The translations under genes were made by a program, and so were the position numbers. The notes beneath the pieces were generated by a model. That model saw nothing but the letters and a program-made list of their open reading frames with translations. It was not told the DNA's origin and ran no database searches. A DNA stretch of 63,275 bases, the filler included, from Stramenopiles sp. TOSAG23-6 (lineage: Eukaryota): assembly GCA_900128565.1 (NCBI GenBank). It is 7 parts of 7 records of this genome, joined end to end, with 100 filler letters (N's around TTAATTAATTAA, not from the genome) between each part and the next. Parts side by side here need not be neighbours in the genome. Positions count along the whole stretch, not along the records: positions 36,300 to 48,242 come from LT636228.1; 6 more parts are not named here. One strand, written 5' to 3'. Of the stretch, positions 14,867 to 60,367 are shown one piece after another (position 1 is the stretch's first letter; each line of letters opens with the position of its first letter).

Positions 14867-14874
14867 TGACGTCA
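14867..14874. promoter_or_regulatory. TGACGTCA (CRE/bZIP-type palindrome) in a divergent intergenic region
   Basis: Perfect palindrome between head-to-head genes; a second copy lies at 39439-39446 in another divergent gap. Confidence 0.35.
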
Positions 14875-29509: not shown

Positions 29510-31189
29510 GGGAGCTCGAATGTGAGTAAGAAAAAAACATTTTGGACAAAACAAAAAGTACTTATACTCGTTGCGACTGTTCTTGTAATTGCTATAGCTT
29601 TTGGTATTTTGATTCCACTAGTGTTTCTAAAGAAGAACTCACAGTCAACAAAAATTCCTGTAAAACTAACTTATCCAGGCACATATGATGGTGACGATAA
29701 AGAAAAGTATACCCCTCTAAAGAAAAAAATCGTAAATGCGGTGGAAAAATATGGAGATTCTGTAGTTAATGGAATTGAAGGTATTTCAGTGGAGGCTGGT
29801 TCAATTATTGTGAGATGTACTGTTTCAAGAAGTAAGAGTAAAGGACCAGTAGACCCCAAAGAGTATCAAAAGAAACTGGGGAACACAACAGGCGCAGAGC
29901 AAACTACACCAGCTCCATCACCACAAACACCACCTGCAACACCACCACCTGCAACACCACCTGCAACACCTGCAACACCACCACCTGCAACACCACCTGC
30001 AACACCACCACAACCACAACCACAACCACCACAACCAAGTGTTGCAGGATCAAACCAAACAATTGAAGATGAAATAAAAAATGCCGTTTATCCAGTAATC
30101 GAAAGTGATGCAGATTTCAATCAACGAGTAGGAGGACTTTCTGATGAACAAGCTGCTATAGCACTGGCTAAAAGGTTTCCTGAATCTTCGACAATATTAC
30201 CTTTTCTAGAATTAGGTAGATGTCCTGATGTTAAGTATACGAAAGTATGTGTTAGTATGATTTTGATTTTTTTTACTAAGATTTTTTTTTTTCCATAACA
30301 AAAAATCATTAAGTATTTCACAAATTTTTAAATATTTTCTGAAAAAACAGGATTACATAGGAATTATTGCTGCTACTCGTGGAAAAAAACATCGAACATT
30401 TGTTACTGCTATAGAACAAGGTTTACTTGATATTACATTTGGAAAAGCATCTGATAACGATCTAGATGATGTAACAATCGCTTCTTTTATTGAAGAATCT
30501 CAAAAATTTGAGGCTGCAATGAATCTTATTGATAAAGCACGTGTATGTTTTATTTTTATTCAATTTCGGATTTGTTTTTGTACGAAATTTCGTAATTGAC
30601 AAATTTTATAAAACAAAATATTTTTCCACAATATATGCACAAGGAAAGAAAGTATTGGTTTGTTGTATGCAAGGACTTGCGTATTTGATGAAAACATTTG
30701 ACGTAACAAAACAACAAGCTTATAAGTTTGTAAAAAGTAAAAGACCAAAAATTACGGTAAAAGATTACTATCAATCGTATGGTTTAGATAATAATACTGA
30801 TTGTACGTTTTCATCATTCACTTCAACATGTGAAAATCAAATGTCTTTTTTAAATGTCTTTTTCAAATGTCTTTTTTTAAATGTCTCATTCTTAATTTCA
30901 TATTATATTCCATAAATAATCCAAATCGCGTATTTGTTATAGGTTTTTATACTAACAATTTATATTCGGATATATATTTATTCATAGTACATGGACTTCA
31001 GATTTATCAGGACTTTTGGATATTTGGCCACGAAACAATTGGGCCGGATGTGCCCTTTTATTGTATCAGGCAAATAAAGAGATTATTCAAATTCGATTAA
31101 AAGACCAAAAATTGCGTAAACTCCAATATCCAAGGCGTACTAAAGGTGTTGCTCCTAAAATTGAAAATGTTTGTGCCGGATTGCTTTGA
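29510..31189 (+). CDS. Paralogous DSP-like protein with N-terminal TM and Pro-rich stalk, catalytic loop deleted; introns 30245-30350, 30543-30636, 30803-30992; start not identified
   Basis: LPFLELGRC, YIGIIAATRG, AMNLIDKAR, VLVCCMQGLAYLM and GLLDIW all align to the 27468-28884 gene. Confidence 0.65.
30543..30636 (+). mobile_element. Introner-like intron absent from the paralog
   Basis: GCA CGT|GTATGT...AATATAT|GCA CAA GGA; the paralog has uninterrupted GCA CGT AGC. Confidence 0.75.
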
Positions 31190-31314: not shown

Positions 31315-34300
31315 TTAAAATAAATTTCTCTGTCTTTTTACAGGTGTTTTTATATCTAACTGGTGTTGTTTCATTCTTCTTGCATATCTCGATATTCCCA
31401 AACTTGGTGGGAGACTTTTCATGATTTTCTTGTTTTTTGATTCTGCATTTGTTGCAGTATTCCCAACCATCTGATTTCCACTTGTAAAAGATTCTGATGT
31501 AAGACGATTCAGTTTTGTAGATAATCGAAGTACCTTTAGTTGAAGATCTTCCGTCTCCAATGAGTTTTTATCAAGTAAACTTTGAAGTCTATCTCTATCA
31601 TCAAATGCAGCTTTTAATTCAAGTTTATGTGCATCTGTGAGCCGTTGCAGTTGTGAAATATTTTCATATTCTTTATCGACGAGGCGACGTTTCAAACCAT
31701 CTAAATGCTTTTCTTGAGAAGTAAATTTTCGTTTATATGACAAAGCAGTTGTATCCGCATTATTTTGTATTGTATCTTCTTGAACTTTGTATTTTTGTTG
31801 GAGAGCTTCACACTCTGCCTCTGTCACAGCTAACTTCATTTCTGTTTCCCGTAAAGCTTCTTTCAATTCGGCTAATTTTGATATTGCTTCATTGCCTAAC
31901 ACCTGATATTTCTTCACTGAATTATCAATTTTTTCTTTTTTATGTAAAAGTAAATTATATTTTTCACGCAGTGATTGCTCAACTTGTTGATGTTTTTTTA
32001 CAGATTTCTTATACTTATCTCTCCATTCTTTAATCTCATCATTTAGCATTTGCTGTTCTTCATGTATTGTGAAAAAACACGNAATCATGNAAAAAATCGT
32101 TAGGTACGAAATTTCGTATGAAAAAAATAATAAATTAATAAATTCATGATGAAACATACATGAACAAGATCTTTTAACGTGATTATTTCTTTAATTGAAT
32201 TTTTGTGTCGTTTTTTCATGAGATTATTCTGCCAATCTAATTTCATTTGTAAAATATTTTCTTTCCACGTAATCCAAGCACGAGTTTGTAAAAAACCTAA
32301 TTTTTTAGAGAGTATTGTTCGTAATGCACGCTGTCCTTCATGTATTTTGGAAAAATATTTTAAAAAAAATCTTAAAAAATTTGTTAGGTACAAAATTCCG
32401 TACGAAAAAAAAATCGAATTTTTCGGTAAATAAAAAAAAATAAAACAAACATGTACAAATGCCAATTGTGTGCGGATTAAATGGGCAAAAGTGCACCATG
32501 TATTGAATGCAAGGTTACATCGTTTGTGTCGCCATCTGCCCATTGTCATAAATAATAGATTTGTTGCATGTTCCATTTTTTGTTTTTTTACTAAAAATTG
32601 ATGCCATTTTGAAAATCCTCGATACAAGAAATGATAAATAAGTTTTCGTATTGTAGAATCAAGAATGTGAATGACACGTTTGTATTTTTGTCTTATAATG
32701 ACATCATGTATTTTGAAAAAATATTTCAAAAATTTTCTATAAAAAAAAATTTGTTAGGTACGAAATTTTTTTACCAAAAAAAAAAAATTCGATTTTTTTG
32801 TAAAAAAAAAAATAAAACGTACATGTATTCTAGATCCATGAACAATCAAATCCCATGCACGAAATCCTCTAGACAATATTTTATGCCTCATATGATCAAT
32901 CATTCGTGATAAAAGTTGAATAGCTTGTACTTGAGATTGGTGACGAAACACATGACATGTCCATGTATTGTGAAAAAACATGAAATCACAAAAAAAAATC
33001 GTTAGGTACGAAATTTCGTACGAAAAAAAAGTTTAGATAAAAAATTGAAAACAAATAAAATATACATGTGTGCCATCCACTCCATAAATTGTGTTGGAGT
33101 AATCTTCGTATTGCATTTGATGTCGTTGTGTGTAGTCTAGACACAGCATAATCTGTGCGTAAATGTAAAAATTCCTCATTGTATTTTTCTCTCATTTCAA
33201 ATTTGTCTACCAAATGTCGTTTATGAATTGTCTTTGTATACCACACATTCCACGCACCACTCAAAATCTTAGAGAGCCAATGGGATATTACCCTATAGAA
33301 AGAACGTAATTTTGTATCTCGTACAAAACTATCAGCTTGCATGGTGAGTAGTAACGCCTGGCCATTAATATCTGTTTTCTTTTGCACATATAAAAGGTCT
33401 TTAATCAAATCAATCCAACGATACCATCCAATATGAAGTTGACGTCTTTCCCAGTGACAAATTGTACGGTGTATTAAAATGAGAGCATGATGTCTTGCTA
33501 ACCAATGTAAAGTATAATTTATCCACGTAGCAAAACAACGTGTCAGTCGACGATGTATTGTGAAAAAATATTCCAAAATTTTCTATAAAAAAAAACTTGT
33601 TAGGTACAAAAATTTTTTACCAAAAAAAAAAAAAATAAATTCGATTTTTTTACCAAAAAAAAAAATAAATAAAACATACATGCTTCCAGTGGTATAATAC
33701 CGTTTGTAATTTTTGTGATGCAGTCACATATTTAGTATAACGGGCATGAGTCAAATGTGCGTAATTAATCCAAGAACTCCAAGAACGGGCTAATTGTTTA
33801 TGTACCAGTAATTTAATAAAATGTCTTAATAATCGGAGTCCATGTTCTTTTTCCATATTTTCACATTCATATTGAAAAATATTTTCTTGTTTTTGAGATA
33901 ATGATCTTTGTGTAGATAAATTATTTGAAACTTTCATCAACTTTTCATGCACATGAGACCCAAACACAAACATATCCCATGCACGAAATCCTTTTGCTTT
34001 CATTCGATGTAATGCATACTCTATTGTTCTATTTATCAATATGAAAATGTGCTTTTGACGTTGTTGTAAAGATTTATGACTCAAGTCTGCATTTTGTGAA
34101 GTTAAAACACTATGACAATGAGTTCCAAATGAAAACATATCCCATTTGTAAAAAGAGCGACTAAGCATGCGATGCATTGCATGATTCAACGATCTTTGCA
34201 TTAATAATGTGGCATGTTTTTTACATAAAAATATTTTTTTTGTTTTCATATTTAGTAAATTATTCATTTGTTCTGCTGATAAAGTGTCCTCTGTATTTTT

Positions 34301-34378: not shown

Positions 34379-34477
34379 ATGAATTTTGGAAAAATATTTC
34401 AAAAAAATCTAAAAAAATTGTTAGGTACAAAATTTCGTATGAAAAATAAATTCATAGAAAAAAAAAAAAAAACATAC

Positions 34478-36138
34478 ATGTAGAGAGAAGAGGATTGAAA
34501 CATCTCTGATGTTTCGACCATTGTGGTATTGGTTTTGGTGGTAACATTTCTTTCAACTCGTCATTAATCAAATCAAATAAAACCTTATTATGTATTGTGA
34601 AGAAATATTTTTTTGTTTTTTTGTTAGGTATAAAATTTCCTACGAAAACCAAAAAAAAAATTAAATTCATAACGAAAACGTACATGTATTTGCATATACT
34701 CAACAGAATGTCCAGATATTTTCTCATTATTTCGTTCGTGATTGACAAAATCATTGACATCTAAGACATCAAATGTTATTTGATTATCTTCAGATATTGG
34801 CTCAATTTGTGATTGATAATGATATTGTCGTTCAGCTGCAGCTTTGAGATTCTCTGAATAATAATTTTGATTTCCTTCCGTTAAATCGTGAATATAATTA
34901 CTGATATGCATCTTCCAATCATAAATATGTTTTTCATTCGACTGCTTAGAAGAATATTTATCTGTATCCACATCATCAAAATCATATTCATCATCTTTAT
35001 CTTCTTCAACAATATCATCATCTTTATCTTCTTCAACAATATCATCATCTTTATCTTCTTCAACGATATCATCATCTTTATCTTCTTCAACGATATTCTC
35101 TTCATTACCTTCTTCAACAATATCATCATCTTTATCTTCTTCAACGATATTCTCTTCATTACGGTTAGGACTAAACTTTTCTCCATCATCTTGTTCATCA
35201 TCATTGATATCTTCAATAATATCATCTTGTTCATCATCATTGATGTCTTCAATAAAAGATTCATTTAAATATTCTTCTTCGCCACCGGAGAAACTAATGT
35301 TTCCACCATTCCAATCAGAGTGAACAGAACCCAAAGAATCTCTCTGGGGTATTATTGTACTTCTTGGGCTTATTATAGCACTCTCTTCTCGACTTTTGCT
35401 AGGGATAGTTTTTAAAAATTGTTGACTTTCGTAACTTTCGTCTCCCCCACTAAATCCAGAAATATTTCCATCACCAACATCATTATCGTCATTATCATTT
35501 TCTAAGTTGTCACCACCATCATTATCGTCATTATCATTTTTAAAGTTGCATTGTTTTACTTCTTCCAAAATTTGTTGAGATTTATTTTCGTCATTTCTTT
35601 TTTCTCTCTCAAAAAATTCTTTTTTTCCTTCCTCAGAAATTGTCTCATTCACTTTTAATTCTTCCGGGGAAATATTCTTCATGTCATTATTTGAAATTTC
35701 TTGTATTGACTTCCTCACATCATTATCTGAATCATTTTGTTTATTTAAATCAATTGAAGTCTCAAATTCATCAGAGTATATACCACTATTTTCTACTGAA
35801 GAAGAAGGTGAAGAGGAAACTTTTGTTTGACTATTTTCTACTGAAAAAGAAGGTGAAGAGGAAACTTTTGTTTGACCTTTACAAGTCATTGAAATTGTTT
35901 CTGTAATCTCTTTACTTAATGGTGAAATATTTTCTGATTTTATCTCAGTGGAAGAAGAGACTATAGTAGTAGGCGAGTTTTGAATATATGAACGAGCTGG
36001 TTCAATATAATCGTATTCACTAGTAATCATTACAGGAATATCGTGTACATTATTAATTATTGGAGCTGTATTATTTACGAATCCTGTTGGTTGAGAGGAT
36101 ACTGATGATGTTTCATGAAAATTCAAATGACAAGTCCC
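34478..36138 (-). CDS. Acidic low-complexity protein with DUF4378-like motif (partial); intron 34590-34683
   Basis: After splicing QIHNKVLFDLINDEL; EEDKDDDIV repeats. Confidence 0.45.
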
Positions 36139-36199: not shown

Positions 36200-36299
36200 N
36201 NNNNNNNNNNNNNNNNNNNNNNNNNNNNNNNNNNNNNNNNNNNTTAATTAATTAANNNNNNNNNNNNNNNNNNNNNNNNNNNNNNNNNNNNNNNNNNNN
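36200..36299. other. Artificial contig linker
   Basis: N-TTAATTAATTAA-N. Confidence 0.95.
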
Positions 36300-36354
36300 C
36301 GTACGAAATTTTGTACCTAACGATTTTTTTTTCAAATATTTTTCCAAAATACAT

Positions 36355-37092
36355 ACATGGGGAATGGGAGACTCTTTTGTTCTTGGACATGGTAATGAAG
36401 ATAATCAATGGACCCCTAAAAAAGTTGAATCACTCAACGATGAAAAAATAGTTCAAATATCTGCTGGGTTTTATCACAGTATGGCACTTTCAGATAAAGG
36501 TGTGTTGTTTACATGGGGCGATGGGGACCATGGTAGACTTGGTCATGGTAATGAAGATTTCTGTCGTAAACCAAAAAAAATAGATGCTCTGTTGGGTAAG
36601 GAAATAGTCCAAATTTCAGCTGGCTCTAGCTTCAGTATGGCTTTATTATCAAATGGTAGGGTATATACTTGGGGTTTAGGAGATAATAGACTTGCCCATA
36701 TGTCTAATACGAATCAATATACTCCAAAAGTGGTAGAAGTTTTGTTATCTAAAAGAATTGTCCAAATATCTGCAGGAGATGAACATAGCTTGGCCTTGAC
36801 AGATAAGGGAAAAGTCCTTTCATGGGGATGTGGTGATTTTGGGAAGTTAGGACATGGTGACACGGAAGCGCTTAAATTCCCAAGAGAAATTAAATCTTTA
36901 ACAACAGACAATGATGAAGAAAAAATAGTTGAAATTTGTGCAGGTTTTGAAACAAGTTTAGTTCGTGCCAAAAAAGGTACAATCTATCAGTTTGGAAAAT
37001 CTCTTGTGCAAGAAGATGAAGATGGTGATGAGAGTCTTTTTGAGGGAGAAGACTTTTCTGATTTACCTGTTATACTTGATATGGCGAAATAA
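36355..37092 (+). CDS. RCC1-repeat protein (5' partial)
   Basis: Repeats of IVQISAG..HS.AL...G....WG.G..G.LGHG. Confidence 0.9.
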   Translation, partial: TWGMGDSFVLGHGNEDNQWTPKKVESLNDEKIVQISAGFYHSMALSDKGVLFTWGDGDHGRLGHGNEDFCRKPKKIDALLGKEIVQISAGSSFSMALLSNGRVYTWGLGDNRLAHMSNTNQYTPKVVEVLLSKRIVQISAGDEHSLALTDKGKVLSWGCGDFGKLGHGDTEALKFPREIKSLTTDNDEEKIVEICAGFETSLVRAKKGTIYQFGKSLVQEDEDGDESLFEGEDFSDLPVILDMAK

Positions 37093-37289
37093 TGCAGGTG
37101 CAAAATTACGTGATGTGGTAATATCCCTCTTTAAAACCCCCAAGTATATGGGAGTTTTGATACAATAAAATTGAACATAGATACAATACAATACAATGGA
37201 ACATAATGTGAAGCTTTAGTGCTCCTTTGATTTTTCTTTTAGTACATTATTTTTTATATTCTTGCCACAACCTTTATAAAAACTTCACA

Positions 37290-39314
37290 CTATTCTTCTA
37301 TTTTCTGTTTCTTTTTTTTATCCGTGGAAACATCACAACCTTCTTCCACTTGACGCTTGAGTTTTGTTTTAGAATTAGATTTTTGCCTCTTTTCAGCGAT
37401 TTTCTTCATTTTAGCGATGCCTTTCTCCTTTGACCTACTCTTGACTTTTTGTCGAGACCTATTTTTTGCATTTTGAGCCTCGCCATGAGAGAGATCTTTG
37501 AACTTACAAGCAACCTTTAAATGACCAAAATCATTACAATGTTCACATTTTGCTGTTTTACGAACAGGACAAGTATTTCGTCGGTGCCCAGTTTCAGCAC
37601 AAACAAAACAAGTTCTTGTGGTATTCTTTACAATTTTATCATTTTTTGATTTGTCATTTTGCCGCATTTTCTTTTTTTTCCTCTTTATAAAAGGGGCATC
37701 GCCTAAAATTTTTTGCCGAGCTATTGAAATACGCCACAAACGACTATTTGTTTTATGGTACTGCGGCGAATCAATGGATTCTTTCCAAGTTCGAAAAGGA
37801 CAACCATCACTTTCTTTTTGCTTCTTTACTGTTGTCTTGGATATTTCGTGTTTTTTCACAAGTTTAGCAAATTCAGGATAAATATGTTCTCGTTTAAATC
37901 TTTCTCGTCTTTCTTTTATAGGATCCAAATCCATCGAAATACATCCATGAATACTCGCTTTTTTCGTATCGTAGCTATCAAAAAAACATTTATCTAAAAA
38001 TAAGCCTTCTCCGGGAGCTGTTGGAACATGGCATTTATATAGTGTGAAAAATATTTTTAGAAAAAAAAAAATAAGTACGGAATTTCCTATGTAAAAAAAA
38101 TAAATTGGGAATGGATAATAAAAATGTACATGTCTTTCAAGAGCAACTTCAACAGCCTCCATCGGCAAAACACCTCTAGCAATTTGAATGGCTAGGCCAA
38201 TCATTTTACGTATTTGATGCATTATAAAACTTTGTCCTAAAACATTAATACGAACAAATTCTTCTCCTATATTGTGAAAAAATATTTTTTTTTCGTAAAA
38301 TGTTTTAGGTACGAAATTTCGTACGAAAAAAAAAATAAATTCGAAATTGAAAAAAATAAACGTACCGTCGGATAAAAAAGGATCTGAACATGTAAAAGAT
38401 TTTATATATCGCATACATTGCGGATCGTTTGGCTTCTTTCTTACAGTAAAATTATAATATCGATGCGTTCCACAGTATCGTTGAAGTACCGTACGAAACC
38501 GATGCAGTACATTTGAGTTTACAAAAGAAGAAGATAACGAGTTTGATGCTACACCTGTAGTGTAAACACTTTCGTCGGAGTTACTGTTACTACTATTACT
38601 ACTATTACTAAAAGGAGTACCTGTTATAAAACCTTCTCGTCGATTCCAACCTTCACGAATACCATTCGCTTCAGACAAACCTGTCTGAAAAGAATCACAG
38701 CCACTTTCCCATTGCTTTTCACGAGAAACAGGAGTTAGAATAAATGTTGGTAATATATATTCATATGCTCGAGAATCGCAGCAAAATCTAGCATTGAAAC
38801 TTGTCGTAACTCTTCTACAACCTAACACTGATAACTGAGGTGGAAGATGCGCATTGATCGACGCAGGTATCACATCCATCGTATTATTTAGATCCTCAGG
38901 TGTGACCATGAGCTTTAACGCGACTAGATTACCAGCAGCGTGTACACCTTTGTCTGTACGTGCTGCTCGTGTATAACCGGTCTTGGATAAATTACCACCA
39001 CCATCGTAGTTACTATCGAGAACATATCCTGCCTTAAAAAGTGCTTTTTCTAATTCAGCTTCGATTGTCTTTACCTTTGTATCTTTTTGATATTGAAGAC
39101 CCGAGAACCCAGTCCCACAGTATGCGATAGTAAGACAAACCTTTCGCTTTGGTTTACGTTTTGCGGCAACAAGGGGATTTGGAACTCCCCAGTTTTCATC
39201 ATCGTCACTCTTCTTTGCACAAAATTCACTCAGTCCTTCACCTTGGTTCTGTGCCACTGGCGCTACGGTCAAAGCACTTGTCGTTTTAGTGGCCCCCATT
39301 GTTGCACCTGGCAT
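37290..39314 (-). CDS. PUS1: tRNA pseudouridine synthase TruA/Pus1 with C-terminal CCHC zinc knuckles; introns 38267-38365 and 38037-38129
   Basis: AYCGTGFSGLQ, RAARTDKGVHA, FNARFCCDSRAYEY, GTHRYYNFT, GQSFIMHQIRKMIG and PTAPGEGLFL. Confidence 0.9.
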   Translation of the reverse strand: MPGATMGATKTTSALTVAPVAQNQGEGLSEFCAKKSDDDENWGVPNPLVAAKRKPKRKVCLTIAYCGTGFSGLQYQKDTKVKTIEAELEKALFKAGYVLDSNYDGGGNLSKTGYTRAARTDKGVHAAGNLVALKLMVTPEDLNNTMDVIPASINAHLPPQLSVLGCRRVTTSFNARFCCDSRAYEYILPTFILTPVSREKQWESGCDSFQTGLSEANGIREGWNRREGFITGTPFSNSSNSSNSNSDESVYTTGVASNSLSSSFVNSNVLHRFRTVLQRYCGTHRYYNFTVRKKPNDPQCMRYIKSFTCSDPFLSDGTFIFFNFEFIFFFVRNFVPKTFYEKKIFFHNIGEEFVRINVLGQSFIMHQIRKMIGLAIQIARGVLPMEAVEVALERHVHFYYPFPIYFFYIGNSVLIFFFLKIFFTLYKCHVPTAPGEGLFLDKCFFDSYDTKKASIHGCISMDLDPIKERRERFKREHIYPEFAKLVKKHEISKTTVKKQKESDGCPFRTWKESIDSPQYHKTNSRLWRISIARQKILGDAPFIKRKKKKMRQNDKSKNDKIVKNTTRTCFVCAETGHRRNTCPVRKTAKCEHCNDFGHLKVACKFKDLSHGEAQNAKNRSRQKVKSRSKEKGIAKMKKIAEKRQKSNSKTKLKRQVEEGCDVSTDKKKKQKIEE

Positions 39315-39591
39315 AAAAAATGCCTTCAAGGTTGGTGATAATTACTGTAATACCTTAGCTAGACAGTTTATAGGCTAGTTAGTACATAATATCATGTTCA
39401 TAACACCAAAAACACGCTAAATAGCGCTGAACTAATTCTGACGTCAGTCATCTCATTTGACTGATGATTGATCGTACAGTTACAGAAATTAGATATACTT
39501 TGGAAAGGATTAATACTATATCTATGTTTTGATCTTGGTAAATTCGAAACGACTGAAAATGTTATCAAGATAGCGTAAAAGTTACAAATAA

Positions 39592-41997
39592 ATGGAAGGT
39601 ACGACATTAGACGATAAAGGCAACAGTAGCGAAACGAGAAAATATTCAGTTGATTCTTTTGCAGTACAACCTCGGTCGTTACTGGAAGTTAGTGAAGCTG
39701 GATTGAAGATCGGTATAGATATCATTTATCAACCTCGTTATGCTTGGCTAGCTGAGGAATTTCTTTGCAGCTCTCTTGGCGAAAACGTAATCGAGTCTAA
39801 AGATGATGAAGGAAATGATTACTTCATGAATACAGTTACTAATGAGTCTTTCTGGGAACATCCAAGGTTAGACTATTTTAAAGATTTATATAACACAATT
39901 AAAGCAGAAGATGAGAAAAAGGGTTGCAAAAGTGTAAGTATAAAATCGAGACTTTCGCTCAATGACAAACAAGGCAAGCATTTAGCAAATACATCAGATA
40001 TAAACAAAAATAAATCGAAACATGAATCGAACAATTTATCAAAACCCAAAGAGCCCATAGAGAAAATAATTTGTGATCCGAATTATCTAATTGAGACAGC
40101 AAAACATTTAGGAGTGAAATTTGGAGTTGACGATGAAAGCGAAGTCCGAGAGTTTAATCTTCTCTCATATGCAGGTGAATATTTATATATGCAGCATGCG
40201 TCTACTGCTCCAAATCCGTGGCAGGTTAGTGTAGATGAGCATTCACAAACATACTTTTACAACTGGGTAACGAACGTATCCAGTTACATTGACCCTCGCG
40301 ATGATTATTTTAAAAAGGCAGTTGGTAATGCGAGACGTGCAAATATAGCACGATATAAAAACTATCCTAAGGGTTGGAATGGTGGATATTTAGATTGTTG
40401 GTATGTTTTTGCGGATGCAACCAAGGATAACAATGTATTCTATTATAATTTTAAAACTGGTAAAAAGAGGGCAAACTGTCCAAATATTGGTTTAAATCTA
40501 ACGTTGGTATTTCAGAGATGTTGTCGTAGATTCCTAGCAAAACAAATCCGTAAAAAAAATCTTGAGAAGCAACATCTTGCTAAATTATTTGCAACGACTG
40601 CTTTCGTAAGTCTAAGTGCATCTAGTCTAGCATCTAGTGTATCTATTGAAGCAAGCACCTTGGCGGAAGATTTATTTAACCGGGTTAAAGCGGAGCAGAA
40701 AGTTGCCGAGATAGAGCAGAAAGTTGCCGAGACAGCACAGGCGCATTTAGATGACTTTCTACAAAAAGAAATTGAAAAAGAATTAGAGATGGAGCGACAA
40801 GAACGGGAAGCAGAAATATTTTCTTTGGAGCAAATGCGCAAAGCAGAAGTCGAGCAACGCAACAAAGGTGATGCATTCTTGGGATTTTACCAGGCGCATT
40901 TAAATGACTTTCTACAAAAAGAACTTGAAGAAGAATTAGAGATGGAGCGACAAGAACGGGAAGCAGAAATACTTTCTTTGGAGCAAATGCACAAAGCAGA
41001 AGTCGAGCAACGCAGCAAAGGTGATAAATTCTGGGGAATTGACCTGCATATGATTTATTTACAACGTGAAAGAGATCGGGAAGGAATGGTTCAGGCAGAG
41101 GAGTATACATTGGCATGGATAGCATTTGAAAAGGCACAGCGTCAGAAATCTTGGGAAAGAGTTCAGCAAATTAAGCTAGCCGAAGCGATGCGACATGAGC
41201 GTAATAGAAATAAGCGAATGTGCCAAGAGGAAAAGCATGTACGTTTTCAGAACTGAATTTCGAATTTATTTTTTTTCATAAAAAGATTTGTACCTAACGA
41301 ATGTTTTTACCAAAACAAATATTTTTTCATAATACATCAAACAGCTTTTGGTGACTCATTCTGGGGTTTGGATGTTATGAAGAAAAACATAAAACAAAGA
41401 TTTATGGCTGAAGAGGTTCGTCAAAATCAACTCAATGATGCTCAACTTGCAAAGTTGCATAGATCTTGGGAACTGATTGGTGCCCAAAGGATAAAAGCCC
41501 AACGTGATATTGCACAACGTAAACATTCACAGAATGCAAAGCGGTACATGAAATCATTTTGGAATGCTAAACACACTTCATTTACTGCTATTCATAGGTG
41601 GAATGAGAGTAACGATACCCCTGTAGAAGACGCATCCAAACAAAATCATCTAATGCTTCCTCTTCACTTCGCTACTGCCCCTCTGGACGCTGAACAAGCA
41701 CAAGTATTTCATTCTTCTAATTCAGGGAAAAGGGGATCTGGAAGAATGATTTACAAGGAGCCAGATACACGTTGCTTTCTTCCAAACTTACAGAGTAATA
41801 GCCCCAAAGTGAATTTATACAAACGACACACCGGAGCGGATTTGCGGTCATCGATCGTAAAGAGGGAAACGAAATCTGTGCGGGATAAATCGTTAAAAAG
41901 TAAAAGTCGTAAAAATGGTGTTAATAGTAACAATACTAAGCTTCCTCTTATGGTTAAAAATCATTCAAAGTCAATGGTAAAACAAACTACTGGGTAA
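39592..41997 (+). CDS. WW-domain protein (CEP164-like N-terminus) with IQ-like motif and coiled coil; intron 41239-41337
   Basis: YAWLAEE...DYFMNTVTNESFWEHP; PWQVSVDEHSQTYFYNWVTNVSSYIDP; internal ~50-aa duplication. Confidence 0.65.
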
Positions 41998-42119
41998 AAT
42001 ATTCTGTACCAAAGATCTACGAACGGGAATACTTAAGGTGCATCATGCATATTTTATAAAAAAAAACAGTCAACAATTTTATCTTGTAGTACTATGAGGA
42101 CTTTCTAATGTTAATTTAT

Positions 42120-43739
42120 TCATTTATCACTCGGAACAAATACAACACTGTTGCTTAGACCTTCATAATGATGATGCTCTTTTAGAGATTCGACAGTACC
42201 AATGTGTATAGTGAAAAAATATTGATGTTTGTTTTTGTTAGGTACAGAATTTTTTATGAAAAAAAAAATAAAAATAAATTTGAAATGAAATGAACAATGA
42301 CAACATATAAGCATTTCTTCTACCTTTCGGAAATTCATTTCAAGTTTTTCTTCAGCCTTTTTGCATGAATACTTTAACTTTTCTGGGACATTACTTTTCC
42401 CTTGATTCGAATTTTGATTCAAATTTTGACTAAAATCCTTTTTTTGAGGTTGGATTCCTGCAGGTTCTACTAATGCTAACGTCGAATAAATTTTTGACCA
42501 AGGGACTACATCACCAATAAGTAAAACTCGCTCATTGTCTACCGTTTCAAGCTCATGAGCTTTGATGTGTGCTAAGGCAACGTCTCTAACATCGATAAAT
42601 GCCTTCTCAAGCAAAGGAGAGGGTGGATTTAATGTATTTTGGAAAAATATTTCAAAAAAAAACTCGTTAGGTACAAAATTTCGTACGAAACAAAACTCGA
42701 GTTTGAAAAAAAATTAAACATACATGATTTTCCATTTATAAGCTGTAGAATTTGCTGAAGACTTTGATTGAGTTTAGGTTGTAAAGCAGGACCAAGAATT
42801 AGTGTTGGATTCATGTATTGTAAAACATATTTGTTTTTACGTAATAAAACAATGTTAAGTTTCTATGAAAAAAGAAATGTAGGTGAAACATTGAAATGGA
42901 CATTGAAATGGACATTGAAATGGACATTGAAATGACAACGTACATTACAACAAGTTTAAAAGGAGGTGATTTTGTTTTGATAAAATCCCACGCTGCTCTC
43001 TCCGCTCGAAGTTTACTCAGAGCATACCAATCTTCATGTGCTAATAATTCTGCATCGCTACTCCAATCATTCTCAGTAAATATATGGGAATCAGGTTTAC
43101 CTGTGTAACAATATACTGTAGCAGTCGAACTTGTGATAACAACACGTTCAACAGTGTATTGTGAAAGAAAAAAAATATTTTAAATCGTTAGGTACGAAAT
43201 TTCGTATGAAAAAAAATTAAATTGAAATTCATGATGAAAACATACGTTCTACTTTGAGCACAAGCACTGAGAATTCCAATAGTCCCTTCAATAGCTGGTG
43301 GAAGCATATTGTTTGAATTGTATTCTAAGTTGCCTTTTGCGACACTTGGAGCAGCGAGGAAAAACGGTGAAGCAGTATGAAACACACAACAACAATCCGA
43401 AATAGCCAAGTTGAATGAGTCAGGACGTGACAAATCTGCCTCGAACAATTTTAGACGCTGGAGAGCTCCTGGAAGGGACTGTAAATGCTTTATACGATCA
43501 CCCGTAAATTTGCGCACCGTGCCTCGCACATGATACCCCCTTTCTAGAAGTTGACGGACTAGTTCTGAAGCGAAGAAACCAGAAGCTCCTGTAACACACA
43601 CACGTTTTTTACGAACCAACAGGCGACGTCTCTGTGACAGGCGTGCCATAAGAGCTGCACCAGCGATTCCAGTAGCAACTCCAAATAAGAGCTTTGATAT
43701 TAGAGAACGATTTGGCATTTCCAATGCAATCATTGGCAT
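42120..43739 (-). CDS. NAD-dependent epimerase/dehydratase (DFR/CCR-like SDR); introns 43154-43245, 42813-42943, 42632-42723, 42204-42308
   Basis: VCVTGASGFFAS, VRGTVR, VFHTASP, RVVITSS, WYALSKLRAE, MNPTLILGP and FIDVRDVALAH. Confidence 0.9.
43154..43245 (-). mobile_element. Introner-like intron, GT...AC
   Basis: AGA AC|GTATGT...AATACAC|T GTT GAA CGT gives SRTVERVVITSS; AC duplicated. Confidence 0.8.
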
Positions 43740-44010
43740 CTTCACTACGACGTCACTCAGCAAAAAAAAGAAACAGGAAATGAGGTTAAAGAAGAGTACG
43801 AAAATACCTTGGACAGTGGAGTCGCGAGTCAGACGAATTGGCAAAAAATGTCATTTTTTTTTTAACAGTTACTGTCATATTTTGAGTGATCACGTGAATA
43901 TGTTGACGTTGACATCATATGATATCTTTTACATGAACCTTCCGGGAAAAAAAAAGGAAAGATTTTTCTGACAATTTGAAATTGCAAAGTTGCAATCCTA
44001 TCTTTACCCC

Positions 44011-45850
44011 ATGTGGTATGTTTTCCGAGTACATCTCATCATATTTGCACTAGTTTATACGTGCATTGCGAATGCTCTTGACAACGGTCTAGCACGCACA
44101 CCACCACAAGGGTGGAGCACTTGGAACACTTTCGGTTGTGACATCAGTGAGAAGCTATTGTTGGAAGTGGCAGACGCCATAAAAAAACGAGGCATGTTGG
44201 ACATGGGCTATGACCTACTCAACATCGATGACTGTTGGGCTTCCAAGACGCGTGATGCTGTAACTGGTCGCATGGTCGCTGATCCTGTACGCTTTCCAAG
44301 TGGTATGGGAGGGCTTGTAAAAAACTTGCATGCCAAAGGTTTTCGAGTTGGGCTTTATACAGACGTCGGTTCGAAAACTTGTGCTGGTTACCCCGGAAGT
44401 GGTCCTTATGGAGGTAAACATCGCTTGAGATCCCGTAATCAACAATACGCAGAAAATGCTACAACAGCAAGCGAAGAAAATGTGATGACCAAAAAAGAGA
44501 ACAATTTTATACTGGACGCCAAAACATTTGCAGATTGGGAAATTGACTATCTAAAAATAGATAGGTGCTATGAAACTTCACAAGAAAAAAATGAACCTTG
44601 GGAGTTCTATACCAATTTTTCAGCTGCACTTAATGCCACGGGACGACCTATCGAAGTCTCAATATGCAACTGGGGCTTCAAGAAACCATGGACGTGTACG
44701 TTTTTTTCATCATGAATTTCAAATTTATTTTATTTTTTTCAAAAAATTTGTACATTACAATTTTTTTTTTAAATATTTTTTCACAATACATGGGCAAGTA
44801 ATATCGGAAATCTTTGGCGGACAACCACTGATATATTTCCAAGCTATCAGCGTGTAATTACTGTGTTAGATGAACAGGTACAACTTGCACCATTCGCAGG
44901 TCCTGGTCATTGGAATGATCCAGATATGTACATTTCCTTCATTCAGGTCCAAATTTCAATTTCGAATTTTTTTTTTGTACTAAATTCTGTACCTAACGAA
45001 TTTTTCTAATTTGTTTTTTCAAAATACATGCTCGAGGTTGGTGTAAAAGGAAATGTAATGAACTATAAATATATGCCAAGCACTGAACTCACAATTTCAG
45101 AATCTTCGCTTCACTTTTCGATATATGTTTTCATCATGGATTTAAATTTTTTTTTTTTGGCACGAAATTTTATACCTAACAAAATGTCAATTTTTAAAAA
45201 TATTTTTCCAAAATACATGTGGGGTATGCTTGCAGCTCCACTCATCGCAGGTGCTGATATTCGCACAGTTTCGGATGACTTTTTGAAAATTCTCACAAAT
45301 GCTGAAATAATTCATACAATCAATCAAGATCCACTAGGTATACAAGCAACACGAGTGTACTTTTTCAACACGAATTTTTATTTTTTTATTTTTTTTTCAT
45401 AGAAAATTTTGTAAGTAACGATATTTTTATTTTTTTAAATTTTCACAAAACATATCTCAAACGAAATCAGGAAGATTCGTACCTGCCATACTTATACCTG
45501 AGGAATTCATGGGCCATGCATCTTTCTGTTATGGAACATGTAAACGAATAGAAGTATGGGTTAAACCTCTTGTAAATGGACGAGCTGCCGTGGCATTACT
45601 CAATGTTGGAGATCAGTTTACAGATAAAAGTAAAGACTTCAAGGCTGAGAACGTGTCTATTTCAGTAAGTGACATCATTGGTCTTTCGCCATCAGATGCT
45701 CCATTTTGTGTACATGATGCGTTACGTCACATTGATACTGATGAAAGGCTGACTATGAATTCAGTACTTTTGCGAAAACAAATACCTGTACATTCACATG
45801 AGCTTTTATTGGTTGAATCATGTACTATACAAGAAGAGGTAATTAGATAA
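44011..45850 (+). CDS. Alpha-galactosidase, glycoside hydrolase family 27; introns 44696-44791, 44928-45029, 45123-45218, 45357-45453
   Basis: LDNGLARTPPQGWSTWN, NIDDCW, IDYLKID; after splicing GNLWRTTTDI, WNDPDMLEVG and HFSMWGMLAAPL. Confidence 0.92.
44928..45029 (+). mobile_element. Introner-like intron, GT...AT, inside WNDPDMLEVG
   Basis: GAT AT|GTACAT...AATACAT|G CTC GAG GTT GGT. Confidence 0.88.
45123..45218 (+). mobile_element. Introner-like intron, AT...AT
   Basis: TCG AT|ATATGT...AATACAT|G TGG gives HFSMW. Confidence 0.82.
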
Positions 45851-46060
45851 AAAGTTAATGTAAATAAGCACAAAAGGTAAATTTAATTTGATATAAATTG
45901 ATCCTCAACCCTATTTGTTCTTTATCTTTAATTACTTCTTGTTACGATACAAAAGGTTTCATTTTGTGTTACGAGTTAACCATCGAAAATAAAGTGAATC
46001 ATATATTTTCTATTGATTTTATTTTTTATTTTCAAAGCAAACTCAAATAAAAAAGAAGTA

Positions 46061-48182
46061 CTACTTCCATCGTGGTTTTACCCCTACTATATTTGGTGGC
46101 CTCCAAGATTGAATAATTGATGTATCATTTGATGAACTTTGACTACGCCGTACATGAGCATTATCTATCATATTTGTTTCATCCATCAATGAAATTTGCC
46201 ACCAACCACCATATAAGTCATGTTTCCTTGCTACATGTATAGATGCAGAGTCAATACCATCATACTGGGATTTTTTTCTTGTATTTCTATATAAATTTAA
46301 TAAACCTCGCGCCTGCATTAGTTGCTTGACACAAACAATTACGAGTGCTCGCAATGTAGCTCGTCTTCGAATAGATATTTCAAGAGAATGTTGTATTTCA
46401 ATTATAAAATCATTCTCATTTCGTAGAGTATCATTAGAATGTACATCAAAAGAATCTACTTTTTGAGATCTCCAAACTTCTGTTTTTGATTCAATTTGAG
46501 CTAGGTTTCTGGGAGATATATATTTAGATCCACATGAAATGATCCATTTACGAAATGCAGATCCTAATTTTTCCGTATATGTGAGTATTATTAACTTCCG
46601 TGCAATATTTTGTAATCTTGCCAGTTCCGTAACTTCCAAATATAACTTTTGAAATGCTCCACTGAGCTTTTTATGACAAGCGTATCTTATCCACTTCATT
46701 GCCTTAAGTTCTACCAGATTTACGCGAATTGTGATAGAACGCCATCGAGAAAATGAATAATGTTTTCGCGAATGTTGCATACGTCTTACACACCTTTTTG
46801 AAAGTTCCCGGGCACGTAGTAGAGTTTTCGTTGATCTTTGCCAAGTACGAAATGCATATAGTAATTGTAAGTTACACATTATTCGAACTTTACTAATGAG
46901 ATGCTTTCTTACGTCTGCTTCTCTGAAAGCTACTAGCAACCAGCGCTGAAAAGCTTGACTTTTCAGCCTGTGAATCATTTGACAAAGGCAACGCCGTGTA
47001 AGTATATTTTGTTTATGCTGATGTAAAAGTTCCATGAAAACAGTTTTGCGCCACTGTTGAAAACTTTTGTTTATCTGTTTAGAGAAATATCGTTGCATCA
47101 AAAATTCTAACTTTGTTAAACCATCTTTTTTAATATTCATCATATGTTTTTTAATATATATCATATGAACAGCATTTTTCCATGTTGAGAATGCAGCATA
47201 TACTGTGTTTGCTTGGAATCGTCGAAGAACTGTTCGTTTCACACGAAGTTTTCTATCTTTAATCAATATTGCGTACATATTCATTTCTCGGTCTTCCACG
47301 TATTGTGAAAAAATATTTCAAAAAAAATCAAATTTTTTTTGTTAGGTACAAAATTTACTACGAAAAAAAAACTTCGAAATTGAAAAAAAAAATAAAACGT
47401 ACACTTCTGCTAGCTCCGTTTGAAGTGAAGATTTCATTTTTCTCATATGATAAATAACTGCATTGTGCCATTGATGGAACCAACGACCTAAATATGCATG
47501 GAAAATTCGAAGAATTGTTGCGTGCATCACCTTTGTTGCTAAAGTTGTGCCTCTATCATTTGCCTTTTGTATTGCAGATGTAGCTGAAGAGATATTCACA
47601 TTATGCCGCCATTTCCAGTACGCGTAACATAAGCTATGAGTTCTCCAACGAGTAGACCAGCTATTTAATATTGTGTATACAGATTGCGTTTTTCTTTTTG
47701 ATTCATTTTGTTCAAATTCCACATGAGATCTTGTTAATGAGATAAAGTATGACCATGTGCGCCAAGCTTGAAATAAACGAAAATATTTTCCATTATACGA
47801 TACTGTGTGAAATAGTCGCAATGCATCGCGTTTCTTTTTTTCTACACAAGTTGCTTTATATACTCTTGTTTTCCATTTTTTCCATGATAATTGAAGTGTT
47901 GAATATTTCCATGAAAGAATAGCCCTCTCAAACACTTTTAGTGACGTCACTACATCATTTTCATGTTTTACAACATTTTGTCCTATAGAAAAAGTGACCA
48001 AACGCCAATGATTGAATGCAAGATTCTCACGCCTTTTTAGTAATCGAAGAAGAATACCAACAACAGATTTTGTCTTCCAGGAAACTTCTCTCCTATTTTG
48101 TTCAGATTGTAGAGAAAATTCACGCCAAATTGACCAGGCTCGAGATAATGCAGTATAATTTATATATCGGAGAACTAGTGTC
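46061..48182 (-). CDS. Second Sfi1-like F/W-repeat helical protein (5' partial); intron 47298-47402
   Basis: Repeats such as AAFSTW, KSFQQW, QAFQRW and YAFRTW. Confidence 0.55.
47298..47402 (-). mobile_element. Introner-like intron, GT...GT
   Basis: GAA GT|GTACGT...AATACGT|G GAA. Confidence 0.75.
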
Positions 48183-48242
48183 ATATATTTTGGAAAAATA
48201 TTTCAAAAAAAAATCGTTAGGTACAAAATTTCGTACGAAAAA

Positions 48243-48342
48243 NNNNNNNNNNNNNNNNNNNNNNNNNNNNNNNNNNNNNNNNNNNNTTAATTAATTAANN
48301 NNNNNNNNNNNNNNNNNNNNNNNNNNNNNNNNNNNNNNNNNN
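48243..48342. other. Artificial contig linker
   Basis: N-TTAATTAATTAA-N. Confidence 0.95.
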
Positions 48343-48443: not shown

Positions 48444-51046
48444 ATACACTGCCTTCATTGATACAATTATCACAAGTTTTGTTGCAACCTGTCTTTTGAA
48501 ATTTTTCTTCAAAATGCTTTAAAAGAAGTTGGCGTCGGCAAATGACGTCATTTTCACAATATTGTAACATTTGCTTTAATTGATCCATTTGTCGTCGGAT
48601 TTCACTTGGTTGTGCTGTCTCGCTTTTATTAATTAAAAATTCGTGAAGTTTTTTGTCTCCATAATTATAAAAAAGAATACATTCGGCTTTGCGCCCGTCC
48701 CTCCCTGCTCGTCCAGATTCCTGATAATAGCCTATTATAGATTTTGGCATAGAAAAATGAACTACGTATCTTACATCAGGTTTATTAATACCCATTCCAA
48801 AAGCAATAGTGGCAACAATCACTTTACATCTATCTTTTGACCAACGCTCATATATTTTGGAAAAATATTTCAAAAGAAAAAACTAAAATTTGTTAGGTAA
48901 AAATTTTCAAAAAAAAAAAAAAAAATTAAAAAATTAAAGATACATGTTTCTCTCTTCTAAGTTGTTTGTCTTCTATACCCGCATGATACCATTCTACTGA
49001 ATTTTCAAGTTTTGTACCTTTCAATGCTTCAAGAAGACCTTGTGCAACATCTTCCACCGCTTTCCGAGTTCCTGCGTACACAATACCTGACTCATTTGGA
49101 TATCGCAAACAAATCTTTGCAATTTCTTTTAAGGTTGTTTTTTTCCCTTTTTTGAGAAACACATCATATGTTAAATTCGGTCGATTAAAACTAGTTGAAA
49201 ATTGTCGAGGATTTCGCATACAGAGATTTTTCTTGACATCTTCTTGAACAGCTTTCGTTGCAGTTGCTGTTAAGGCCATTAATGGAACATCTGGAAAAGT
49301 TTGTTTCAGACAGTTTAAACGCATATAGTCTGGTCTATAATCATGACCCCATTGAGAGACACAATGAGCTTCATCAACAACAAACATGCTCAAGAGACCT
49401 CGACTATTCAGTCGCTCAAATTGTTGCATCAAACTACTACTTGCAGCAATTTTTTCAGGTGTTACATACAAAACTTTTAATTCATTACGAGCAACTTGGC
49501 CCCAGATTCGACTTGACTCCTCAAACTCCATTGCACTATTTAGCGTGTTTGCTGCAATGTCATTTTGTTGTAGATCCATCACCTGATCCTGCATCAATGC
49601 AAGCAAAGGAGATATTACTATGGTCAAACCTGGGAGTAAAACAGCTGGCAACTGGTAGCATAGACTCTTTCCTCCACCAGTTGGCATTAATACAAAAAGA
49701 TCGTGTCCTTCTAGTGCTAATTTTACTACTTTTTCTTGTACTAAACGAAAGCGATCATGACCAAATTTGTTTTTCAATTCACGTCGAATTTCAATATCAC
49801 TATAACTTTTTCTATTACTCATGCTACTTCTAGAAATTTCATAATTGTTGTTGTAGTCATTATTTGTATTATTGTATTGATTTCCATTCTGATAGTTATT
49901 GTTGTAGTCATTATTTGTATTATTGTATTGATTACAAGAAGAGTTGCTACAATCGCTTATATTCCGACTCAGATCAATCACATCATCACATTTTTTCATA
50001 TTCGTATTATTATTTTGATTAAAACTATTTTCATCATCAAAACTATTTATACGATCGAGCCTAGTTGAGTGATTACAGTTAGACATTTTAGAATCCGTAT
50101 CATTCTTATTGTTTGTCATGTTTTTTTTATATGTTTTTTTACAATCCGTATCATTAGGGTTAGGGTTATTGTTTGTCATGTTTTTTTTATATGTTTTTCT
50201 CTCTTTTTTAAGTAGACTTCTTCGTTCTGTGAGATTTTTAATACGAACATGCAGCATTTTTCCACGTTTTGTTTCTTGTTCTTCGAAAGTCATTTCATCC
50301 CATGTATCTTCCGCGTCAAGTAAGTTTCCAGATACTTGATCGTATGTATTTTAGAAAAATATTTGAGAAAAAAATTTGAAAAATTTGTTAGGTACAAAAT
50401 TTCGTATGAAAAAAAAATTCGAGTTTTTTTTTCCGAAAAAAAAAATAAAACATATACTCTCGTTGTATGTCTTGAAATGACTTTCCAGGTAACCCTAACC
50501 CTACATTTATTGTGCCTACTGTTGTTTCTAGTTGCATTGAAGAATTTGGATTCATAGTATTATCTCTATTTTGATTGAAATTGTTACATTGGTTGTTTTG
50601 ACTTTTAGTAGTAGTTTTTGATAAAGCAAACTCTTTGTATGCGCATTCTGGAATATGTATTTTGGAAAAATATATTTGTATTATTTTTGTAGAAAAAAAA
50701 TCGTTAGGTACAAAATTTACTATGAAAAAAAATTTGAAATTTGAAAAAAATAAAACATACATCCTCCTCAATAGTCATTTGTGGGATATTTTCCGATTTC
50801 TGAGACAACTGCTTTTCTTTATATGTTGCGGCCTCTACTTTGTCCATTTCCTCCATAATATCTCCGTAATCTTCATCATAATCAGAAAACAAATCATCTT
50901 CGTCTTCTTCCACATTATGAATTGTTGGTTTTTTATCATTTGTTTTGTTTAAAGAATATCCAATCGTAGTAGTAAGTTGTGTAGGTTTCGTGTTATTGAA
51001 TTGTTGTGTAGGTTTCGTGTTATTGAATTGTAGAGATACCTTTTTC

Positions 51047-60267: not shown

Positions 60268-60367
60268 NNNNNNNNNNNNNNNNNNNNNNNNNNNNNNNNN
60301 NNNNNNNNNNNTTAATTAATTAANNNNNNNNNNNNNNNNNNNNNNNNNNNNNNNNNNNNNNNNNNNN
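60268..60367. other. Artificial contig linker
   Basis: N-TTAATTAATTAA-N. Confidence 0.95.

Follow-up and report, generated by a model that had tools for sequence, protein, structure and literature searches.

The stretch of DNA analysed here (the window; 63,275 nucleotides (nt), filler included, from assembly GCA_900128565.1 of Stramenopiles sp. TOSAG23-6) holds protein-coding genes, nearly all of which are interrupted by members of a single family of introns about 100 nt long, present in at least 55 copies. One copy, at 43154-43245 on the minus strand, lies in the part taken from LT636228.1 (36,300 to 48,242) and interrupts a gene for an NAD-dependent reductase of the dihydroflavonol/cinnamoyl-CoA reductase (DFR/CCR) kind; the same gene contains two further copies (Table 1). 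Intron borders are written below as X/Y, where X stands for the last two exon bases and Y for the last two intron bases. All counts over 51 copies refer to a curated set in which both ends were fixed by family homology and reading frame, never by the match between X and Y itself. Omitted from this set were the ambiguous both-ended copies 7192-7285, 24932-, 34380-34477 and 62530-62625, some nine further copies truncated at assembly joints, and 30803-30992, a diverged intron (TT/AT).

Read along its own strand (43245-43154), the reductase intron follows an exon ending ..GTAGAAC, runs as GTATGTTTTC..TACCTAAC..CACAATAC-AC and is succeeded by TGTTGAACG; its immediate borders are ..GAAC, then GTATGTTTT..CAATACAC, then TGTTG. 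The place of the cut can be judged from homology. Residue 119 of exon 1 aligns to residue 114 of the PDB chain 4qtz_A and residue 2 of exon 2 to residue 118. Between them lie what is left of exon 1, the codon split by the intron and residue 1 of exon 2, so the two alignments continue in line only when the excised piece measures exactly 92 nt. Removal of one codon more or less does not fit the alignment, and use of the first downstream AG as the 3' site would cost the conserved ..RVV.TSS.. block. Given a 5' cut at GT, the element is a GT..AC intron that follows an exon ending AC.

The copies constitute a repeated intron family, beyond the mere sharing of splice signals. The word GTAYGTTTT occurs 39 times in the window versus 2.3 expected, and a hidden Markov model (HMM) built from 23 clear copies and run with nhmmer gave 57 matches at E<=1e-3 in 63 kb; a scan with end matrices added diverged copies. 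The family consensus consists of GTAYGT, T-runs, a near-palindrome (..TTTCGTACGAAATTTYGTAC..) that enters the branch box TACCTAAC, further T-runs, and GAAATATTTTTYCAMAATAC followed by two bases, and the 51 copies are 58-154 nt long (median 101). Their host genes are unrelated and include those for ALIX, a GH27 alpha-galactosidase, the reductase, a DEAD helicase and others (Pfam scan of 17 large open reading frames (ORFs)). One could suppose that no mobile family exists and that these are ordinary introns with very strict and long splice signals, both ATs included; indeed, all conserved blocks lie where signals could lie (5' site, branch box and 3' end). We consider this highly improbable. The similarity spans the whole 90-120 nt and takes in blocks for which no function as a signal is known (CATCATGAATTTCGAATT, GAAATATTTTT and the palindrome ahead of the branch box); pairwise full-length identity reaches 0.90 between copies in unrelated genes, and 23 of the 51 copies have a partner at an identity of at least 0.80. 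In a seawater DNA run (X3), the summed contig depth is 1262-17238 in the bins that hold copies versus about 8.5 over exons, hundreds of times higher, this sum adding all look-alike contigs and not being a copy number. Assemblies also break at the copies: a partial family copy adjoins all six joints of the window, which implies that the assembly broke at the repeat.

Further support for a mobile family comes from other records. A scan of metagenome contigs with the core pattern found one locus, L121 (contig of 3.2 kb, GC 0.35), with a single AT/AT copy. This copy, at 2476-2578 on the minus strand, sits in another gene (..CAT, then GT..ACAT, then G) and is 91% identical over 110 nt to the window copy at 32963-33065; coming from another record, it shows that the family exists beyond the source assembly. 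In the same contigs, a pattern for copies whose end does not begin with A gave no matches. In viral contigs, a 17-nt tail pattern picked out 120 stretches, which we take to be chance matches of an AT-rich word, since the nhmmer family model found no copies in the stored loci. Linkage of the 5' motif to the tail type, which would be a sign of subfamilies, was not detected with crude classes (p = 0.23).

The element brings a yeast-like GTAYGT 5' site, T-runs, the branch box TACCTAAC and, at its 3' side, a conserved ..ATAC or ..ATACA followed by two bases; that it carries its own 5' splice site, as proposed earlier from the sequence, is therefore upheld. GTAYGT is found in 34 of the 51 copies, the hexamers being GTATGT (18), GTACGT (16), ATATGT (5) and others (12), and the first dinucleotide is GT in 45, AT in 5 and GA in 1. 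The ATATGT starts (A for G at the first intron base) and the single GAACGT start preserve the frame in every case. What is removed runs from the G of GT through two bases beyond TAC, and only this TAC+2 end keeps the frame open in most copies. Removal of 37 confident copies at GT..TAC+2 yields fused frames of 703, 495, 845 and 841 codons that hold 4, 4, 5 and 3 introns, respectively, and the reading frame is likewise kept for the 51 curated copies. The distance between the branch A and the 3' end is 31-104 nt (median 40), and in at least seven copies an AG 11-38 nt beyond that A, out of frame, is skipped.

Direct evidence of splicing was found in a poly(A) metatranscriptome. A contig of 263 letters (X8 record 28) lies on 44645-44694, 44791-44925 and 45028-45105 with no extra letters, and the 96 and 102 nt that it lacks are the copies 44696-44791 and 44928-45029 after sliding over repeated bases. 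At 44696-44791 the exon ends GT and the joined mRNA reads ..GGACG-TGGGC.., which is incompatible with AT..AC ends, so that only GT..AT (or T..A) remains. The join at 44928-45029 gives ..WNDPD-M-LEVG.., in which D aligns to residue 216 of the rice alpha-galactosidase 1uas_A; in GH27 enzymes, MLEVG follows that site. Formally, the AT/AT copies might equally be AT..AC introns displaced by two bases; this reading is ruled out at 44696 by the RNA and is impossible in copies that lack the repeat. In a second RNA run (X6, non-poly(A), compared with 36300-48242) the depth over family intron sequence is in the hundreds to thousands, and one contig of this run passes unspliced through 42813-42922, inside the intron 42813-42943; X6 must contain DNA or unspliced RNA and was therefore not used to judge splicing.

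The final two intron bases are A plus, mostly, a repeat of the last exon base, and they are AT in three quarters of the copies. Introns end AT (39), AG (7), GT (2), AC (2) or TG (1), after exons that end AT (32), GT (7), TG (4), TT (2) or, once each, TC, TA, AA, CG, AC and GG. In 34 of 51 copies the intron closes with the same dinucleotide as the exon before it (31 AT, 2 GT and 1 AC), versus a shuffled mean of 24.9, and none of 200,000 shuffles reached 34; the three non-AT matches compare with 0.39 expected (p = 0.003). An AT exon end precedes 31 of the 39 AT-ending copies versus 1 of the 12 others (Fisher p = 1.6e-5), and a G-ending exon precedes 5 of the 8 G-ending introns versus 1 of the 43 others (p = 1.4e-4). 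In a per-position, within-locus test in the manner of Gozashti et al., following the available portion of bioRxiv 10.1101/2022.06.06.494994, position -1 matches in 45 of 51 copies versus 34.0 (0 of 20,000 shuffles) and position -2 in 36 of 51 versus 32.5 (p = 0.014). For a duplication of more than two bases, no locus-specific match was seen at -3 or at +1 to +8 over the 51 copies. As a rule for the intron end, 'A plus the last exon base' fits 42 copies, a fixed AT 39 and a two-base copy of the exon end 34; of the 17 mismatches, 10 agree in the last base and fall short of a match only in having A at -2 (GT/AT 5, TG/AG 3, CG/AG 1 and TT/AT 1). Two readings suit the pattern: either 2 base pairs (bp) were duplicated and A at -2 was then quickly selected for, or an element ending ..TACA duplicated 1 bp.

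Much of what the sequence-only reading had asserted about this match is borne out: AC/AC at 43154-43245, GT/GT at 16390-16487 and 47298-47402, and the mismatched copies at 717, 25210, 26021 and 28144 all stand, and the pairing of G-ending exons with G-ending introns holds in five of six cases (16143, 24712, 38365, 53141 and 61445, the exception being 28144). The matches do exceed chance. Its 2-bp target duplication is well founded for the last base, whereas the signal at the base before is weak. Its proposal that the target copy serves as the 3' end whatever its sequence survives in part: the intron end does track the exon end and removal leaves no scar in the frame, but 46 of the 51 copies end AT or AG, and among the 19 copies at non-AT exon ends only three are perfect. 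Its view of the mismatched copies as older and drifted did not hold, as these are not more diverged (p = 0.17-0.28).

We lean, by a small measure, towards an introner-like element that inserted in DNA with a 1-2-bp target duplication, brought its own 5' site and branch box, and is cut at the 3' side behind the duplicated base or bases, with a spliceosome that takes YAT. Under this proposal, the element would insert at M-A-T/G sites by a staggered cut, the repair of which would duplicate two target bases, or possibly only one, and the downstream copy of these bases would become the 3' splice site. Splicing would then take out the element together with one copy and leave the coding sequence unchanged. 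The host spliceosome would have to accept YAT and, less often, YAG, YAC and YGT at a fixed point beyond the branch box, and not only AG, and copies at other targets would be driven by selection towards A at -2. Around the insertion, position -3 is C or A in 38 of 51 copies, -2 is A in 34, -1 is T in 41 and +1 is G in 34, where the background frequencies are 0.34 for A, 0.17 for C, 0.20 for G and 0.29 for T. This makes a near-palindromic C-AT-G, and the targets of transposases are often palindromic.

A number of observations weigh against this proposal, several of which favour an end ..TACAT carried by the element or set by the host splice code, the insertion being flush after (M)AT and nothing duplicated, whether by reverse splicing into mRNA and copying back into DNA or by blunt DNA insertion. 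Eight copies at non-AT exon ends still end AT, and such copies include ones near the consensus (55, 49, 45 and 43 bits), as would be expected of an element that brings its own AT; a fixed AT also fits more copies than the two-base copy does (39 versus 34). Matching does not rise with similarity to the consensus and is thus unlinked to copy age: the median scores are 39.6 bits for matched, 34.1 for mismatched non-AG and 33.5 for AG-ending copies (Mann-Whitney p = 0.17-0.28). The evidence at -2 comes from the two GT/GT copies, which are mutual nearest relatives (0.854 versus 0.84 and 0.82 for the next) and may be one event instead of two independent ones; statistically, the duplication is solid for one base only. 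Since M at -3 and G at +1 are the usual exon consensus, the target 'palindrome' may simply reflect splicing, and M-A-T/GTAYGT .. /G indeed resembles an ordinary splice context with T for G. Diverged and possibly non-family introns (30803-30992 and the candidate 30245-30296) also end AT, diverged introns showing ..ACAT, so AT may be a general 3' signal of the host. Matches across introns are, moreover, called ambiguous by Gozashti et al. in the part of their report available (bioRxiv 10.1101/2022.06.06.494994).

A carried ..TACAT would have to ascribe the remaining covariation to later selection (AG where the exon end is not AT) and to a few related copies. Yet it gives no account of the tracking of the last base (G after G, and 45 of 51 at -1), nor of the avoidance of AT exons by copies that do not end AT (1 of 12), and AC/AC at 43154-43245 is left unexplained. 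The AG-ending copies are each nearest to AT/AT copies, which indicates that they arose locally and not as one lineage. On balance we regard a carried end as unlikely, if by no means negligible.

The kinship of the two GT-ending copies, both after GT, bears on another explanation, in which a carried terminal dinucleotide (for example, the joint of a circle) is matched to the same 1-2 target bases by recombination or microhomology and is inherited in sub-lineages. Tyrosine-recombinase elements such as Cryptons are said to integrate by such matching. The prevalence of AT in both element ends and targets, the frequency of partial matches at the last base only and the near absence of terminal inverted repeats would all suit it. 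The AG-, AC- and TG-ending copies, however, form no lineages and are each nearest to AT/AT copies, the margin of relatedness of the GT copies is small, and neither a recombinase gene nor a circle junction was seen in the window. We hold this explanation to be quite unlikely, less so only than the absence of any mobile family.

The ends and the surroundings of the element likewise offer the insertion proposal little help, and belong with the points that count against it. The inverted repeat common to all copies is only GTA(Y)/(A)TAC, 3-4 bp, plus T/A runs; the longer GTAYGTTTT/AAAATAC of the sequence-only reading, seen as GTAT(G)TTTT/AAAATAC, is confined to copies with the CCAAAATAC tail. The inverted repeat was not confirmed as exceeding chance. 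RNAalifold found no conserved pairs among 24 copies. No transposase was found among the 17 large ORFs of the window scanned against Pfam, and no empty site or insertion polymorphism among the DNA-run joints listed, all of which are repeat-induced, uncovered parts not being evidence. We know of no transposon superfamily that makes an AT duplication. Tc1/mariner-Stowaway miniature inverted-repeat transposable elements (MITEs) have inverted-repeat ends flanked by a TA target duplication; here TA/TA flanks occur in none of the 51 copies, and the flanking repeat is AT in 31. Terminal inverted repeats of at least 6 nt, the length treated as clear by Gozashti et al., are absent, and the same source, in the part available, does not require such repeats of all introner families (bioRxiv 10.1101/2022.06.06.494994).

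As for structure in the RNA, pairing of the two ends was considered as a means of choosing the 3' site and set aside, there being no consensus structure. The fold z-scores of four copies (-1.46, -0.46, -2.29 and +0.49) are not consistently better than those of shuffles. In some copies of the CCAAAATAC-tail type, GUAU/AUAC and UUCAAA/UUUGAA pair in register with a central hairpin; this is not significant and at most hints at an old dyad symmetry.

A wider claim can be put forward only tentatively, as it falls somewhat short of being probable: almost all introns of this genome may derive from one mobile element, 1-2 target bases being duplicated and their copy serving as the 3' site, and the major spliceosome may have dropped the rule that the last base be G, its cut now falling at a fixed point beyond the branch box, behind A plus any base, usually T.

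Table 1 Family copies and related introns in the window, by position (borders: last two exon bases/last two intron bases)
Position	Strand	Borders	Features	Frame, RNA or homology
535-631	+	AT/AT		
717-819	+	TC/AG		
1162-1255	+	TA/AT	5' site at doubled GTAT (GTATGTATG)	frame fails with 5' site at 1166
2614-2732	-	AT/AT	GTACTT	
2913-3000	-	AT/AT	GTTTGT	
4075-4179	+	AT/AT	ATATGT	
4640-4743	+	AT/AT	ATATGT	
5070-5163	+	AT/AT		
5758-5848	+	AT/AT		
7192-7285	-		TAC+2 site is TT; outside the 51	
7460-7548	-	AT/AT		
12373-12480	-	AT/AT		
15716-15773	+	GT/AT	truncated, 58 nt	
16143-16231	+	TG/AG	TAC changed to TAG; AG two bases before usual site used	
16390-16487	+	GT/GT	nearest relative 47402 (0.854)	63 codons before, 1241 after
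21093-21210	+	AT/AT		
21346-21452	+	AT/AT	GAACGT	
21725-21825	+	TT/AT	GTATCT	
21964-22117	+	AT/AT	diverged	
24712-24819	+	TG/AG		
25210-25313	+	AT/AG		
25387-25485	+	AT/AT		
25596-25701	+	AT/AT		
25827-25938	+	AT/AT		
26021-26153	+	AA/AG		
28010-28144	-	TG/AT	diverged	
30543-30636	+	GT/AT		
30803-30992	+	TT/AT	longer, diverged; family-like 5' end, TACTAAC box, ..GTACAT end; outside the 51	
32062-32159	-	AT/AT		
32340-32450	-	AT/AT	GTTTGT	
32706-32822	-	AT/AT		
32963-33065	-	AT/AT	GTATAT; relative of L121 copy	
33553-33679	-	AT/AT		
34380-34477	-	AT/AT by position	outside the 51	frame needs 97, 100 or 103 nt removed, not 99
34590-34683	-	AT/AT		
38037-38129	-	AT/AT	GTACAT	
38267-38365	-	CG/AG		
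41239-41337	+	AT/AT		
42204-42308	-	TT/AC	ATATGT	
42632-42723	-	AT/AT	same gene as 43154-43245	
42813-42943	-	AT/AT	diverged; 12-nt tandem repeat; same gene as 43154-43245	
43154-43245	-	AC/AC	92 nt, GTATGT..CAATAC+AC	201 codons before, 113 after
44696-44791	+	GT/AT	GH27 alpha-galactosidase gene	RNA join 44694 to 44791; homology
44928-45029	+	AT/AT	GTACAT	RNA join 44925 to 45028; exon ends ..HWNDPD at 1uas_A residue 216
45123-45218	+	AT/AT	ATATGT (A at +1)	X8 record 29 begins on window at 45217, fits removal
45357-45453	+	GT/AT	GTACTT	
47298-47402	-	GT/GT		
48850-48943	-	AT/AT	GTATCT	
50344-50455	-	GT/AT	ATATGT; alternative reading GTATAT..TAC from two bases earlier	
50655-50760	-	AT/AT		
53141-53231	+	GG/TG	GTACCT	
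59064-59158	+	AT/AT		
61445-61553	+	TG/AG		
62744-62844	-	AT/AT	closest to consensus, 60.6 bits	

Several copies deserve separate mention. At 1162-1255 only the upstream GT keeps the frame, and the exon therefore ends TA, though AT precedes the family-homologous GT. The copy at 16143-16231 has GGTAT at both junctions (..AATG/GTATG.. and ..ATAG/GTATC..), a 5-base direct repeat for which we have no explanation. The AT start and AC end of 42204-42308 make up the classical AT-AC pairing of ends. Two diverged introns contain short tandem repeats, each of about four units: the unit is 12 nt long at 42890-42935 and 12-13 nt long near 30840-30890. The copy at 34380-34477 (minus strand) is near the consensus, with a tail ..AAAATTCAT then GTACAT; either it uses another 3' site (for example, ..GTAC/AT) or there is an assembly indel nearby. 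For 7192-7285, an AG 3 or 10 nt further on probably serves as the 3' site.

The introns 28010-28144 (minus strand) and 30803-30992 (plus strand) lie in genes with similar downstream exons (..GLLD[IV]W..W..C..), and both end ..CA[CT]AGTACAT directly before the similar exon, their own exon ends being TG and TT, neither of them AT; the two genes are probably paralogues that inherited an old copy. At 30245-30296 (plus strand) there is a candidate intron of 52 nt (GTATGTGTT.., a TTACTAAG box, a T-run and ..CCAT). It would link the frames 29414-30298 and 30267-30912 as a GT..AT intron after an exon ending AA, other in-frame ends being possible.

The window itself consists of seven contigs of 12022, 12014, 11963, 11943, 11925, 1404 and 1404 bases, ordered by falling size. 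They are joined at 12023-12122, 24137-24236, 36200-36299, 48243-48342, 60268-60367 and 61772-61871 by a spacer N44-TTAATTAATTAA-N44, and gene neighbourhood across these joints carries no meaning. Single Ns occur within homopolymers at 742, 26062, 32082 and other places. On the minus strand at 12856-12887, two long reading frames, 14733-12856 and 12887-12135, share about 30 nt and leave no space for an intron, which is probably a one-base assembly error. The host is an uncultured marine protist, probably a stramenopile. The atlas cluster nearest to the ALIX-UBA protein of the window has diatoms as its commonest phylum, which serves as a lead only, and a protein homologue search with the ALIX exon gave no match at E<=0.001. 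Rfam and transfer RNA scans of the window returned nothing, and hence no small nuclear RNA (snRNA) to set against the splice sites. Uncultured marine stramenopile genomes have been described as having 'few but long introns' (PMC5269757, in the part available). In the literature searched, no paper treats both introners and MAST-4.

The unusual part of the finding is the GT-AT splicing. The origin of introns and the flexibility of the spliceosome are long-standing questions, and introners that borrow a splice site normally yield GT-AG introns, while very few lineages are known in whose genomes non-canonical introns predominate. The natural variants found here (AT, AG, GT, AC and TG) of one otherwise identical intron isolate a single variable, the last intron nucleotide. 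There is also a practical side, as gene finders that require AG would miss about one intron per kilobase and break most gene models in this host.

U12-type introns have the 5' site [A/G]TATCCTT and a branch box about 10-15 nt from the 3' end. The present family resembles U12- and U2-type AT-AC introns in having ends other than GT-AG, with five copies that begin with A and one that both does so and ends AC (42204-42308). Unlike U12-type introns, however, it has no ATATCCTT-type 5' site, and its branch box lies far from the 3' end, at the distances given above.

The closest parallels are found among the introners. In Chrysochromulina sp. (4 bp) and in IE1 of Micromonas pusilla (3 bp), according to the portions available of bioRxiv 10.1101/2022.06.06.494994 and PMC11282704, the element has its own 5' site and the 3' site comes from the target duplication, yielding AG. 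As far as these portions go, the likeness is considerable: near-identical short introns lie in unrelated genes, the element gives GT or GC, the duplicated target gives the intron end and the length of the mRNA is unchanged. Yet there the duplication is 3-4 bp with a canonical AG, whereas here it is 1-2 bases with AT in 39 of 51 copies, and Micromonas IE1 is described as having clear terminal inverted repeats, whereas those found here are 3-4 bp. Fungal introner-like elements, as presented in the available part of bioRxiv 10.1101/2022.06.06.494994, are about 100 nt long, have ordinary 5' and branch signals, are confined to genes and are proposed to spread through RNA. They are similar to the present family in being short, repeated introns of about 100 nt with an ordinary 5' site and branch signals; they differ in that this part reports them as GT-AG introns without target duplications or inverted repeats, whereas the present copies show the repeat at -1/-2 and the AT end.

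Non-canonical introns on a genome-wide scale have been reported from Fritillaria borealis, a tunicate (Henriet et al. 2019, according to the summary in the available part of PMC11282704), where they are held to derive from MITEs and an exonic repeat acts as the 3' site. Both systems would share an origin in a small DNA transposon, common AC/AT ends and a tolerant spliceosome. In Fritillaria, going by that summary, it is the 5' end that is non-canonical (AG-AC, AG-AT) and the exonic repeat is TAC, whereas here 45 of 51 copies start with GT, the exon ends AT in 32 of 51 and only the 3' dinucleotide departs; the present host is, moreover, a protist, probably a stramenopile. The introners of Amoebophrya and the nonconventional introns of euglenids, in the passages available of PMC7789003 and PMC11282704, are likewise repeated non-canonical introns of marine protists with short direct repeats across their borders. 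Those introns have inverted repeats of 8-20 nt or a pairing of their ends by which the exons are drawn together, direct repeats of 3-5 nt and very varied borders, and for Amoebophrya the same passages state that no U1 snRNA was found; here, in contrast, there is no conserved pairing, the 5' site is classical and the borders are near-uniform.

Our literature search found no GT-AT intron family of this kind described; the supplementary tables of the introner surveys, which lay outside that search, could list one. The combination of a strictly classical 5' site, a repeat of 1-2 bases and freedom of the last intron base only sets the family apart from the known systems, whose logic it shares. If the wider claim made above is true, this host would represent a further independent lineage, after Fritillaria and Amoebophrya, whose splice code was rewritten by transposon invasion, and the first of them to have freed the last intron base alone and kept a strictly classical 5' site.

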